NCBI GenBank assembly: GCA_043735365.1
Contig: JAYTEJ010000101.1
Coordinates: forward strand, 1-30,972
Length of the DNA stretch: 30,972 nucleotides
Source of the DNA: Acidobacteriota bacterium
GTDB lineage: Bacteria > Acidobacteriota > Vicinamibacteria > Vicinamibacterales > 2-12-FULL-66-21
Direction: 5' to 3'
The notes below the pieces were generated by a model that worked only from the letters and a program-made list of their open reading frames with translations, was not told where the DNA came from and did not search any database. Position numbers and translations under genes: made by a program. Below, one piece after another: positions 16,544 to 21,294 of this stretch (its first letter is position 1; each line of letters starts with the position of its first letter).

Positions 16544-17947
16544 TTATGGCAGCTTTACGGCGGCGGCCGTCGGCTCGAGCCGCTTCAATTTCTCGATCAG
16601 CGTCGTCCGCTTCAGGTTCAGCAGCTTCGCGGCCTGCCGCTTGTTCCCCTGGGTCCGTTCGAGCGATCGCCGGATCAGCGACAGCTCGACCCCCTCGATA
16701 TAGCGCTCGAAATCCAGCCCTTCGTCCGGGAACCACACCGCGGCGGCATCGACCGGCGCGGCCTGCGTCTGGATGTCCGGCGGCAGGTCCTGAACGTCGA
16801 GATGCAATCGGCCGTGGTTGAACGCGAGCGCCCGCTCGACGATGTTTTCGAGCTGGCGGACGTTGCCGGGCCATGGGTAGGCCATCAACCGCCGCAGCGC
16901 GTCCTGCGAGACGGTCACGTGGCCGCGTCCTGACTCTCCCGCCAGCTTCTGGAGGAAGTGCTGGACTAGCAGCGGCACGTCCTCGCGGCGCTCGCGCAGC
17001 GCCGGCAACTGCACCGGGATGACGTTGAGCCGGTAGAAGAGATCCTCCCGGAAGCTGCCGTCGGCCACCATCCGCGACAGGTCCGAATGGGTGGCGGCGA
17101 TGATGCGCACGTCGATCTTGACGGTGTGCGAGTCGCCGACCCGCTCGAACTCCCGCTCCTGCAGCACGCGCAGCATCTTGGCCTGCAGCGCCGGGCTCAT
17201 CGTCCCTACTTCGTCGAGGAAGAGCGTCCCCTTGTGGGCCTGTTCGAGCTTGCCTTGCCGTGTCGCGATCGCCCCGGTGAAGGCGCCGCGCACGTGACCG
17301 AAGAGCTCGGCCTCGAGCAGCGTCTCTGGGATGGCGCTGCAGTTGATGGCCACGAAGCGGTTGGCGCGGCGCGGGCTGTTGTGGTGGAGCGCCCGCGCGG
17401 CGAGCTCCTTGCCGGTGCCGGTCTCGCCGGTAATCAGCACGGTGCTCGACGTCGCCGCGACGGTCTGCAGCAGCTGAAAGAGATTGCGCATCGGAGCGCT
17501 CTGTCCGACCAGTCCCTCGATGCGGTAGCGATCTTCAAGCTGCGAGCGGAGATACGCATTCTCGGACTTGAGCCGCCGTTGCTCGAGTGCCGAACGGACC
17601 ACGTGGAGGAGAGCATCGAACTGGAACGGCTTGGTGATGAAGTCGGCGGCCCCCTGCTTGATGGCCTCGACGGCGTCCTTCACCGTGCCGTAGCCGGTGA
17701 TGACGATCGGGATGATCTCCGGGTAGCGCTCGAGCGCCGCGTCGACGACCTGGCGGCCGTCGATGCCCGGCAGGCGGAGATCGGTGATGAGGATGTCGAA
17801 GGCGAACTCGGCCAGGCGCTGCAGCGCCGCTTCCCCGCTGCCGGCCTGTTCGACCACGAAGCCGTGATCCGCCAGGCGCTCGGCGATGGCCTCGCGCAGC
17901 GCGGCCTCGTCGTCCACTATCAACAGATGCTTGGGATCTTCAGCCAT
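16544..17947 (-). CDS. Sigma54-dependent response regulator (REC-AAA+-Fis HTH), FleQ/FlrA-like C-terminus
   Basis: REC LLIVDDE...LITDLRLP...TKPF; [49 protein letters not shown]; [19 protein letters not shown]. Confidence 0.95.
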
Positions 17948-17958
17948 GGAGGCAGATG

Positions 17959-17972
17959 GTCGGTATTTTGAC
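17959..17972. promoter_or_regulatory. Candidate bEBP binding box upstream of the activator gene (autoregulation)
   Basis: GTCGGTATTTTGAC. Its reverse complement GTCAAAATACCGAC matches the 18610-18623 box at 12/14 positions. Lies 11 nt from the ATG. Confidence 0.5.
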
Positions 17973-18046
17973 ACCCCCAGGGTCCGGCGGTCAACGAGAG
18001 CCGCGGCGCAGGGCCAGAATGAGGGCGCGCGCGTGTGCGCGGCAGC

Positions 18047-18075
18047 CTACAGCGGGGCGCCCACCCGTCCGATAA
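18047..18075 (+). promoter_or_regulatory. Candidate sigma28 promoter for the HTH/mini-DHp pair
   Basis: CTACAG-N15-TCCGATAA. The -10 is 7/8 to GCCGATAA; the -35 is TACA versus TAAA, with a spacer 1 nt longer than the enteric consensus. Confidence 0.45.
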
Positions 18076-18141
18076 CATTCTCGAACTTCGAATGCGGTAA
18101 CCCGTTCCGGTCCGGTTCATCCGGGCGTGGCGATGAGAGCG

Positions 18142-18342
18142 ATGATCAACGATCGCAAGACGATTTCGATCATGAAGGCGTGCGAGATGGTCGGGGTGAG
18201 CCGACGCACGATCTACAACTGGATTGCCGGCGGCAAGGTCGAGTATGTGCGTACGGCCGGCGGATCCGTTCGCATCTTCGTCGATACCCTCTGGCGGGAC
18301 CCCGGCCGGGCCGGGGAGCTGACCGGCAAAGAAGCGTCATGA
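18142..18342 (+). CDS. 66 aa HTH_17/MerR-like DNA-binding protein, BldC-like
   Basis: ISIMKACEMVGVSRRTIYNWIAGGKVEYVRTAGGSVRIF follows the W-x3-GK-x4-RT-x-GG-x2-R pattern. Confidence 0.88.
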   Translation: MINDRKTISIMKACEMVGVSRRTIYNWIAGGKVEYVRTAGGSVRIFVDTLWRDPGRAGELTGKEAS

Positions 18343-18578
18343 GGGGGGCCACCGATGCCCACTCCGCGAGGATGCCCGTGAGCGAACGGCCGGATCTGGG
18401 CTTGCTGTTTCACCGGCTGAACAACCAGTTGGGGATCATCCTGGCCAACGCCGAGCTGCTCGAGGCCAAGGCGGCCGACGAGATGACGCGGGCGCGCGCC
18501 TCGCAGGTGGTCGCGAGCGTGCTCGACGCCATGGCCACCGCGCGCGAAGTCCGCCTCCATTCGAAGCTCCCGAAGTAG
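18339..18578 (+). CDS. Stand-alone HisKA/DHp-like mini protein (68-79 aa)
   Basis: LLFHRLNNQLGIILANAELL is an H-box (His codon 18411), followed by a second helix and a stop, with no ATPase domain. ATGA overlap with the HTH gene; alternative ATG at 18372. Confidence 0.8.
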   Translation: MRGATDAHSARMPVSERPDLGLLFHRLNNQLGIILANAELLEAKAADEMTRARASQVVASVLDAMATAREVRLHSKLPK

Positions 18579-18579
18579 C

Positions 18580-18623
18580 GTCAAGGTTTTGGCAACACAT
18601 GCCACGCTCGTCAAAATATTGAC
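18580..18623. promoter_or_regulatory. Tandem candidate enhancer (bEBP UAS) boxes
   Basis: GTCAAGGTTTTGGC (18580-93) and GTCAAAATATTGAC (18610-23, inside the perfect inverted repeat TCGTCAA-N4-TTGACGA), 30 bp apart. Confidence 0.6.
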
Positions 18624-18693
18624 GAACCGTTCGGCACGCTTCCGCCCGTACCTGCGCACACCTTCACACTGATTCACGCTTTAAGTTGTTAAA

Positions 18694-18706
18694 AATAAGC
18701 TAGTTA
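18694..18706 (+). promoter_or_regulatory. IHF-like site
   Basis: AATAAG-CTAG-TTA is one mismatch from WATCAR-N4-TTR and sits in an AT-rich patch between the enhancer boxes and the -24/-12 promoter. Confidence 0.45.
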
Positions 18707-18756
18707 CGCTGAGTCTGCGTCTGCGGGGAAGGTTCGTCTTTTCATCGCTTTGTGTC

Positions 18757-18772
18757 TGGTACTCCCGTTGCG
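18757..18772 (+). promoter_or_regulatory. Sigma54 (-24/-12) promoter of the sigma28 gene
   Basis: TGGTAC-TCCCG-TTGCG has exact GG-N10-GC spacing and ends 55 nt before the ATG. Confidence 0.75.
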
Positions 18773-18827
18773 GTTGGGGTGGCAGGTCTGCCGTTGTGGC
18801 AGCCAGCACTTCTGGAGGAACCGAGAC

Positions 18828-19739
18828 ATGCAGCGTCAGCCCCTTGCCGCCCATCATCAGGACCGAATTGCCGCCGGACTGCCATTCGTGGAGTCGCTGG
18901 CGCGTCGGGTGGCCGCCTCGATGCCGCATTCAATCGAGCTCGGAGACCTGGTGCAGGACGGCATGATCGGCCTCATCGACGCCGCCTGCCGCTTCGACGA
19001 AGCCCGCGGCATCAAGTTCGAGACCTTCGCCGAGCGGCGCGTCCGCGGGGCAATGATCGACGCGCTGCGCCGCGACGCCTGGCCGCGCGGCGTCCGCCGC
19101 CAGCGGCGTGAGCTCGAAGCGGCGCGCGAAGCGCTGCGCCGCGAGCTCGGCGCCGAGCCCTCACTCGCCGATCTGGCCAAGCGCGTCGGTTCCGACGAGG
19201 CGCGGCTCGGCCGCACTATCGTCCGCATTCACACCATCGAGTCGACGTCGCCGATGTCGGCCGCTGAGCACGTCGACCACGCCTCGCTTCCCGCGGTCCT
19301 CGTCCCCTGCGAGCCGCCGACGCCCGACAAGGCCTACGAACAGCAGGAAGTACGCGACCGCATGCGCGCCGCGATCGCCTCGCTGCCGCCGCGCGAGCGC
19401 CGGGTGATCGCGCTCTATTACTATGCGGAAGCGACGATGAAGGAAATCGGGGCGGAGATTGGCGTCAACGAGTCGCGGGTGTCGCAGCTGCACGCCCGCG
19501 CGGTGCAGCGGTTGAAGAAGGCGCTTGGCGCCGAGTGCTTCGCCGAGGCGCCGATGAGCCCGGCGATTCTCTCGTTCCAGGCCACCATCCGCCGCCGCCG
19601 CATGGCCAAGGCCGATCTGCCGCAGGGGCCCGGCGTGGTGTTGCAGTACCGCGCGCCGGAAGCGACGGCGCCGGTGCGGCGGCAGACGGCGGCGTCGCGC
19701 CGGCCCGCGGCCGTCGGCGCGGTCGCAGCCGCGCGCTGA
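18828..19739 (+). CDS. fliA: FliA/WhiG-family (sigma28) RNA polymerase sigma factor with C-terminal extension
   Basis: DLVQDGMIGLIDA, FETFAERRVRGAMIDALR, WPRGVRR, EATMKEIGAEIGVNESRVSQLH. GGAGG SD before ATG 18828. Confidence 0.9.
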   Translation: MQRQPLAAHHQDRIAAGLPFVESLARRVAASMPHSIELGDLVQDGMIGLIDAACRFDEARGIKFETFAERRVRGAMIDALRRDAWPRGVRRQRRELEAAREALRRELGAEPSLADLAKRVGSDEARLGRTIVRIHTIESTSPMSAAEHVDHASLPAVLVPCEPPTPDKAYEQQEVRDRMRAAIASLPPRERRVIALYYYAEATMKEIGAEIGVNESRVSQLHARAVQRLKKALGAECFAEAPMSPAILSFQATIRRRRMAKADLPQGPGVVLQYRAPEATAPVRRQTAASRRPAAVGAVAAAR

Positions 19740-19749
19740 TCACCGCGCA

Positions 19750-21294
<1,545 letters not shown>

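Follow-up and report, generated by a model that had tools for sequence, protein, structure and literature searches.

The sequence analyzed here, referred to as the window, is a stretch of 30,972 nucleotides that constitutes contig C101 (JAYTEJ010000101.1) of a metagenome-assembled genome (MAG; GCA_043735365.1; 3.48 Mb, 637 contigs, 68% GC) from an Acidobacteriota bacterium of the order Vicinamibacterales. The element in question is the control region at positions 18580 to 18771, which precedes the gene of a 303-residue sigma factor of the FliA/WhiG family (18828 to 19739, forward strand; TIGR02479, 201 bits against a cutoff of 189.6). The Shine-Dalgarno sequence of this gene, GGAGGA, lies at 18814 to 18819 on the forward strand, ahead of the ATG at 18828. 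Divergently oriented in the same locus is a 476-residue open reading frame (ORF; 16544 to 17974, reverse strand) for a sigma-54 activator, or bacterial enhancer-binding protein (bEBP), composed of a receiver (REC) domain, an AAA+ domain with the GAFTGA motif, and a Fis-type helix-turn-helix (HTH) domain (Pfam Response_reg, Sigma54_activat, AAA_lid_14, and HTH_8). The true start of this protein is probably the ATG at 17947. A preliminary description of the locus quoted a C terminus beginning GLDFERYI for the activator, which is found in this ORF, and called the protein adjacent to the control region. The two do share the locus, but a pair of small ORFs (18133 to 18342 and 18339 to 18578) separates the activator gene from the boxes described below.

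The control region opens with two boxes. The distal box (GTCAAGGTTTTGGC, 18580 to 18593) has one mismatch to GTCA-N6-TGAC, and the proximal box (GTCAAAATATTGAC, 18610 to 18623) has perfectly palindromic arms; their start-to-start spacing is 30 bp. Further downstream, an AT-rich tract resembling a site for integration host factor (IHF) spans positions 18680 to 18707, with a core, TAAGTTGTTAAAA, at 18682 to 18694 and a TTAC at 18704 to 18707. Neither the boxes nor this tract is assigned to a strand. A sigma-54 promoter, TGGTACtcccgTTGC (TGGTAC-N5-TTGC), follows at 18757 to 18771 on the forward strand, with GG at 18758 to 18759 and GC at 18770 to 18771 in a GG-N10-GC arrangement. From the position of this GC, which belongs to the −12 element, the transcription start is predicted near 18783. 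The sequence thus contains everything that the preliminary description had listed, namely, two boxes 30 bp apart, an AT-rich IHF-like site, and TGGTAC-N5-TTGC.

Conservation of the enhancer and promoter across the Vicinamibacterales

Conservation was assessed over 96 distinct orthologous upstream regions, with the boxes scored in the 94 that retain the promoter. The −24/−12 promoter occurs in the strict form TGGYAY-N5-TYGC in 88 of the 96 regions and in a relaxed form in 94, with the columns GG, A, and GTTGC invariant or nearly so. A proximal box with no more than one mismatch is found in 89 of 94 loci, about 147 bp ahead of the TGG, and a second, distal box of the same quality lies 29 to 33 bp upstream of the proximal one in 70 of the 94. 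The arms of the boxes are conserved and the 6-bp spacer is AT rich yet variable, which gives the consensus GTCAA-wwww-TTGAC. Measured from the −24 TGG, the offsets of the proximal box fall into a main class of −144 to −152 (70 loci) and two minor classes of −134 to −138 (16 loci) and −155 to −157 (3 loci), each about one helical turn away from the main class. The distance from promoter to ATG varies from 23 to 194 bp, whereas the distance from promoter to box is constrained. This combination of a fixed, turn-phased spacing on one side and a free spacing on the other therefore indicates a face-of-helix constraint between enhancer and promoter. Phylogenetic footprinting, which had been suggested as a check, shows that the boxes and the promoter are conserved, and the sigma-54 enhancer-promoter architecture proposed for the front of the sigma gene is kept throughout the order. 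The arrangement of enhancer, IHF-like site, and sigma-54 promoter is real and conserved.

In this order, the composite is also unique within each genome that carries it. The pattern GTCA-N6-TGAC-N118-146-TGGYAY-N5-TTGC was searched in 61 genomes of the order, representing 19 families, with the reversed pattern as a control. It is present in 29 genomes, exactly once in each, while the control matched once over all 61. Every one of the 29 composites immediately precedes the sigma ortholog and is accompanied by the activator, a small ORF, and a kinase gene. In the MAG itself there are 47 TGGYAY-N5-TYGC sites, and only the one in the window has two boxes with AT-rich spacers upstream.

Within the IHF-like tract, a TAA column (at about −76) and a TT column (at about −53, counted from the TGG) are conserved, and the AT content is maximal there. 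Sites with at most one mismatch to the IHF consensus WATCAANNNNTTR occur between −110 and −30 in 33% of loci and in 4% of shuffled sequences, an enrichment of about 8-fold. The MAG encodes an HU/IHF-type protein that attains the cutoff of the IHF-beta model NF001222.

A FleQ-like DNA-binding domain joined to an intact receiver

The DNA-binding domain of the activator (residues 405 to 476, the C-terminal 72 residues) has its best match in the PDB with FleQ of Pseudomonas aeruginosa (8p53_C, E = 6e-7), followed by ZraR (E = 5e-3). The activator and FleQ have in common the pattern PxEGLD..Y...E..LI...L...G...AA..L..RTTL(I/V)EK, and the recognition helix reads KRTTLIEK in the former and RRTTLVEK in the latter. 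Among 70 orthologs, the positions of the helix K-R-T-T-L-(I/V)-E-K-L-K-R are invariant in 61 to 70, alongside the invariant box arms. The MAG encodes at least 25 sigma-54 interaction domains or bEBPs, and a FleQ-like recognition helix was seen only in the activator of the window. The published FleQ box is GTCaNTAAAtTGAC (PMC6120874), given elsewhere as the inverted repeats GTCAAT/ATTGAC (PMC10723142), and the boxes of the window match both descriptions. Two suggestions of the preliminary description, that the boxes are of FleQ type and that they are paired with a FleQ-type RTTL-EK helix, are supported by these comparisons. Together, they strongly suggest that the neighboring activator binds the two GTCA-N6-TGAC boxes.

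The receiver of the activator retains the residues D21/D22, D65 (the phospho-acceptor), T93, and K115 in 76 to 77 of 77 orthologs, and the GAFTGA motif, counted over 76 to 77 orthologs, is conserved in 75 to 76 of 76. The receiver of FleQ is phosphorylation incompetent (PMC10723142). Since the corresponding residues of the activator are canonical, the contrast with FleQ drawn in the preliminary description holds. The intact residues suggest that the activator is regulated by phosphorylation of its receiver.

A sigma factor distinct from the flagellar sigma-28

The preliminary description had taken the downstream gene to be the sigma-28 gene of a flagellar hierarchy, and on this point it has to be revised. 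The sigma factor of the window remains below the FliA-specific model NF005413 (179.5 against a cutoff of 201). FlhA and flagellin were surveyed as flagellar markers in 16 genomes of the window's genus and in 10 other genera of the order. The 16 genomes of the genus, of which several are 95 to 100% complete, yielded neither marker, and a search of the MAG itself for FlhA was negative. The two markers co-occur in the same 5 of the 10 other genera. An ortholog of the window's sigma factor is present in all 26 genomes, flagellate or not. The five flagellated genomes carry an extra FliA, 37 to 41% identical to the window's sigma factor, that lies a few kilobases downstream of flhA on the same contig and passes NF005413 with 222 to 231 bits. 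They also encode an extra REC-AAA+-HTH activator that is 51 to 57% identical over its full length, with SRTTLIDK as its helix. In four of these genomes, its gene shares a contig with flhA, at a distance of about 16 kb. No equivalent composites of boxes and promoter turned up when the flagellar clusters of the five relatives were scanned. The sigma factor of the window is not the flagellar sigma-28. Because the flagellates hold a separate pair of FliA and FleQ-like activator, the module looks like a paralog of that pair that acts independently of flagella.

Two side observations concern the activators of the flagellar clusters. In genome G020, the phospho-acceptor aspartate is replaced (VAVQLPD), and in this genome and in G016, a sigma-54-like promoter lies ahead of the activator gene.

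Outside the order, the composite is rare across 201 Acidobacteriota genomes, in which the control pattern had no match. One other nonflagellate genus, g51, which belongs to another acidobacterial family and is represented by three genomes, has the composite four times per genome; FlhA was not found in these three genomes. One of its composites is flanked by a REC-bEBP gene and by the sole sigma gene of the FliA/WhiG family in those genomes, and others precede a pseudopilin resembling the type II secretion protein G (T2SS-G) and an FG-GAP/fn3 protein. With four composites per genome, the regulon of the activator is therefore wider there. The synteny of bEBP and sigma genes persists even where the small ORFs are missing. 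Given its occurrence in a second nonflagellate family, the arrangement of bEBP, enhancer, and sigma factor must be older than the order.

Candidate promoters of the sigma factor

The promoter type expected for the FliA/WhiG family is TAAA-N15/16-GCCGATAA. A sigma-28-type promoter, CTACAG-N16-CCGATAA, is located at 18047 to 18075 on the forward strand, ahead of the two small genes. The strict form CTAYAG-N16-CCGATA is kept in 62 of 77 loci. A looser form is found in 76 of the 77, and 75 of these 76 have the N16 spacer. Distant loci carry TTAAAG...GCCGATAG, which is how a canonical sigma-28 promoter reads. A search of 17 genomes of the genus with CTAYAG-N16-CCGATA returned 38 matches, compared with 5 for the control pattern, and the module's own small-gene promoter was matched in all 17. 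Three targets recur. The pattern precedes the gene of an OMP_b-brl outer membrane protein in seven genomes; in the four where this gene and the module share a contig, the gene lies about 30 kb downstream. The other two are the gene of a 157-residue lipoprotein (three genomes, including this MAG, at C166:16727-16754) and that of a lipoprotein of about 385 residues with Ig-like domains (four genomes). The sigma factor of the window probably reads these promoters, and the distribution of matches suggests feedback onto the small-gene operon together with a small, nonflagellar envelope regulon. Several of the sites lie 2 to 25 nucleotides from a start codon, which suggests leaderless or short-leader mRNAs.

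Other conserved features of the locus

The first small gene (18133 to 18342, forward strand) encodes a 69-residue DNA-binding protein of the excisionase/MerR-like HTH_17 type (TIGR01764, 36.6 against a cutoff of 28.8; PF12728, 34.2 against 27). Its likeness to BldC is weak, with 22 bits in model NF033787, for which the cutoff is 77. The orthologs are 71 to 100% identical over 78 loci, and the stop codon overlaps the ATG of the next ORF (ATGA). This second ORF (18339 to 18578, forward strand) encodes a 79-residue mini-protein that resembles a dimerization and histidine phosphotransfer (DHp) domain and has, in the alignment of its orthologs, an invariant H-box, LLFHRLNNQLGIILANAELL. It had no match in Pfam or NCBIfam. 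The protein consists of the DHp-like hairpin alone, with an invariant FHRLNNQLGIILANAELL. When its profile was run against the genome, the second-best match was the H-box of the neighboring hybrid kinase (E = 0.0066). Possible functions of the mini-protein are phosphotransfer, modulation of a kinase, or an anti-sigma-like role. The kinase gene itself (19750 to 21294, reverse strand) is convergent with the sigma gene and encodes a hybrid histidine kinase with the Pfam domain order PAS-HisKA-HATPase-REC. It is syntenic in nearly all loci; the activator stays with the module in about 80 loci, as does the whole five-gene arrangement of activator, two small ORFs, sigma factor, and kinase.

The activator gene has a sigma-70-type promoter of its own (17965 to 17994, reverse strand), retrieved by a consensus scan and composed of TTGACC, a spacer of 17 to 18 nucleotides, and a TG-extended CAAAAT (TTGACC-N17-TGnCAAAAT). 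Of 71 loci, 50 have TTGACC or TTGACG at the 17-nucleotide spacing, and conservation extends to the CAAAAT hexamer. With this conserved promoter, the activator fits a response regulator that is made constitutively and awaits a signal. The promoter ends 17 to 20 nucleotides before the ATG at 17947, so that the mRNA would have a very short leader without a Shine-Dalgarno sequence. An apparent third enhancer box, G(G/C)CGGTATTTTGAC, found at the start of the activator gene in about 72 of 77 loci, was rejected: it corresponds to the hexamers of the sigma-70-type promoter, and its left half is not GTCA.

Two further repeats lie within the control region. Direct repeats of TTCAC, TTCACActgaTTCACG (18663 to 18678, forward strand), follow the form (T/G)CAC with a period of about 10 to 11 bp and occupy, by eye, the same place in most aligned loci; that the HTH_17 protein might bind them is pure conjecture. 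A T-rich element, TTCGTCTTTTCATCGCTTTG (18733 to 18752, forward strand), is a direct repeat of TTCGyCTTTT-ATCGCTTT that abuts the −24 element, and its TTCGCTTTTtgATCGnTTT is kept in most loci at the genus and family levels. It may be the site of a second regulator or an UP-like element. A search of Rfam at E ≤ 1 returned a subthreshold match to CRISPR-DR (20 bits against 39) as its sole match and thus no RNA element, and no terminator-like sites were found between 17900 and 19900. A check for public RNA runs covering 17900 to 19800 listed none. The palindromes of the boxes were considered as an RNA hairpin or terminator and rejected, as their stems are 4 bp long and AT rich and their arms are invariant, without compensatory changes.

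Alternative explanations

The boxes and promoter could in principle form the class II step of a genuine flagellar hierarchy, in which a FleQ/FlrA-type master regulator switches on the flagellar fliA, as in Vibrio, Legionella, and Pseudomonas putida, the flagellar genes being missing from the assemblies. The logic of the circuit and the sequence of the boxes fit FleQ systems (PMC6424431), and the MAG is fragmented, with rpoN itself not found. The marker survey speaks against this explanation, since near-complete genomes of the genus also returned neither FlhA nor flagellin, while both turned up in the same five of the other genera. The flagellates, moreover, hold beside flhA a second FliA that passes the FliA model, unlike the sigma factor of the window, and their flagellar cluster contains another FleQ-like activator, and the recurrent putative targets of the window's sigma factor are envelope proteins. 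A flagellar role is on these grounds highly improbable. A different explanation removes sigma-54 from the circuit: the boxes would contain a sigma-70-type promoter, with TTGGCA as its −35 and CAAAAT as its −10 hexamer, or readthrough from the sigma-28-type promoter would account for most transcription of the sigma gene, leaving the −24/−12 element incidental or vestigial. A consensus scan does give TTGGCA-17-CAAAAT at 18589 to 18617, the sigma-28-type promoter upstream is conserved, and nothing terminator-like lies between the small genes and the sigma gene. Conservation, however, falls on all four box arms, whereas the positions of the would-be −10 hexamer vary freely, and TGGYAY-N5-TTGC, near-invariant in 94 of the 96 regions and helically phased to the boxes, does not behave like a vestige. 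Readthrough may add to the sigma-54 promoter rather than replace it, and we regard a circuit without sigma-54 as very unlikely.

It is also conceivable that the promoter depends on sigma-54 and that the boxes are bound by another protein, either some other bEBP or the small HTH protein of the excisionase/BldC-like type. The many bEBPs of the MAG provide candidates, the HTH_17 protein is conserved within the module, and in the second acidobacterial family the composite precedes four different genes. Yet the FleQ-like recognition helix is confined to the neighboring bEBP, neither the helix nor the box arms vary within the order, and a palindrome with a 14-bp core suits the dimer of a Fis-type HTH (PMC10723142). 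Positions near −166 and −196, with helical phasing, are typical of enhancers and not of a small MerR-like protein, and the synteny of bEBP and sigma genes survives the loss of the small ORFs. Binding by another protein is for these reasons unlikely.

A number of observations weigh against the reading that we prefer, a dedicated sigma-54 switch operated by the neighboring FleQ-like activator. The search for rpoN in this MAG, an assembly fragmented into 637 contigs, gave no match. Because rpoN was found in all 25 relatives searched, we attribute its absence to a gap in the assembly. The other genomes of the genus measure 3.6 to 9.6 Mb, compared with 3.48 Mb for this MAG, whose completeness is estimated at 91.5%; this value probably overstates the assembled share, as the genomes of the genus are larger and rpoN is missing despite at least 25 activator genes. 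The right arm of the distal box in the window reads TGGC, a mismatch. The IHF-like core of the window has two mismatches to YAANNNNTTGATW, the reverse of the Escherichia coli IHF consensus, and the bend site is for this reason plausible rather than established. The HTH_17 protein is an alternative DNA binder at the module, and the TTCAC repeats and the T-rich repeat, both conserved, may bind other factors. The regulon assigned to the sigma factor depends on a 12-base pattern with 38 matches against 5 for its control. With these points taken into account, a dedicated sigma-54 switch, the neighboring FleQ-like activator, and a nonflagellar FliA/WhiG-family sigma factor remain together the probable explanation of the locus.

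Proposed mechanism and implications

In the mechanism that we infer, positions 18580 to 18771 would be the control region of a dedicated sigma-54-dependent promoter. The divergent response-regulator activator would bind, most likely as dimers, at both boxes through its FleQ-type HTH, the boxes being centered near −166 and −196 relative to the predicted start, three helical turns apart. Phosphorylation of its receiver, presumably by the neighboring hybrid kinase with or without the DHp mini-protein, would lead to oligomerization. A bend at the IHF-like site near −95 would loop the activator onto the sigma-54 holoenzyme at TGGTAC-N5-TTGC, where ATP hydrolysis would open the promoter. The product, a nonflagellar sigma factor of the FliA/WhiG family, would then act at CTAYAG-N16-CCGATA promoters, those of the HTH/DHp operon, as feedback, and of a few genes for outer membrane proteins and lipoproteins.

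A broader interpretation can be offered only tentatively. Nonmotile Acidobacteriota might possess a flagellum-independent cascade in which a two-component FleQ-like activator acts through sigma-54 on a FliA/WhiG-type sigma factor, with feedback from the latter to a BldC-like DNA-binding protein and a free DHp mini-protein. Such a cascade could have arisen long ago by duplication of the flagellar FleQ-FliA pair, could have been retained in at least two nonflagellate lineages, and could serve as a commitment switch for an envelope or cell differentiation program with a logic like that of WhiG and BldC in Streptomyces.

A regulatory cascade known from the control of flagella thus appears to be reused for another purpose, probably the production of cell envelope proteins. 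The step in which a bEBP switches on a sigma-28-type factor persists in lineages without detected flagellar genes, a clear case of regulatory reuse, and the FleQ-type DNA-binding domain has been conserved along with its box between Proteobacteria and Acidobacteriota. The Vicinamibacterales abound in soil and have hardly been studied genetically. Sequence alone here defines a testable circuit, made of a kinase, an activator with its boxes, a sigma-54 promoter, a sigma factor, the probable promoter motif of that factor, and its first targets. The exact boxes and promoter offer direct handles for electrophoretic mobility shift assays (EMSA), reporter studies, and chromatin immunoprecipitation (ChIP).

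Comparison with known systems

A literature search on Acidobacteria in connection with FliA and sigma-54 retrieved nothing relevant. The comparison is made here with systems of other bacteria and with the paralogs found in the order. Activators of the NtrC/DctD type work with IHF-assisted looping at glnAp2, dctA, and Pu. The locus resembles them in the REC-AAA+-HTH order of its activator, in two dimer sites that lie over 100 bp upstream and share one face of the helix, and in an AT-rich, putative bend site between the enhancer and the −24/−12 promoter. The NtrC box is TGCACC-N5-GGTGCA. In the window, by contrast, the box and the recognition helix are of FleQ type, and the target is a sigma factor gene and not a metabolic operon.

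FliA/WhiG-family sigma factors with nonflagellar roles include WhiG of Streptomyces, where BldC is a separate small MerR-like developmental regulator, and sigma-28 of Chlamydia. The present system shares with them a sigma-28-family factor outside motility, candidate promoters with a −10 element like GCCGATAA, and a small BldC-like or excisionase-like HTH protein in the same circuit. WhiG is held posttranslationally by the anti-sigma factor RsiG and cyclic di-GMP (c-di-GMP). The system described here differs in its sigma-54 enhancer control, in the weakness of the BldC match (22 bits against a cutoff of 77), and in belonging to a different phylum.

A further comparison is with the flagellar-cluster paralogs of the order itself, which have a bEBP that is 51 to 57% identical, REC domain included, and has a similar HTH (SRTTLIDK), and a sigma factor that is 37 to 41% identical. 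Unlike the module, they adjoin flhA and flagellin genes and are confined to flagellated genomes; their FliA passes NF005413, and no composite was found in their clusters.

The closest known systems are the FleQ/sigma-54 control of fliA-containing operons, as in P. putida, where it governs the flhA-flhF-fleN-fliA operon (PMC6424431), and the NtrC-type, IHF-assisted enhancers. With the FleQ systems, the locus has in common a bEBP with a Fis-type HTH, pseudopalindromic GTCAAT-N2-ATTGAC boxes, a sigma-54 promoter, and a sigma-28-family factor encoded downstream of it (PMC6424431, PMC6120874, PMC10723142). The differences lie in regulation, scope, and host. FleQ has a nonphosphorylatable receiver and is controlled by FleN and c-di-GMP, whereas the activator of the window has a canonical receiver beside a hybrid kinase, which points to phospho-regulation. 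FleQ serves flagellar and biofilm genes at many promoters, whereas within the order there is one composite per genome, at the sigma gene, consistent with a single target. Finally, unlike FleQ and FlrA, the module is carried in lineages where no flagellar genes were found.

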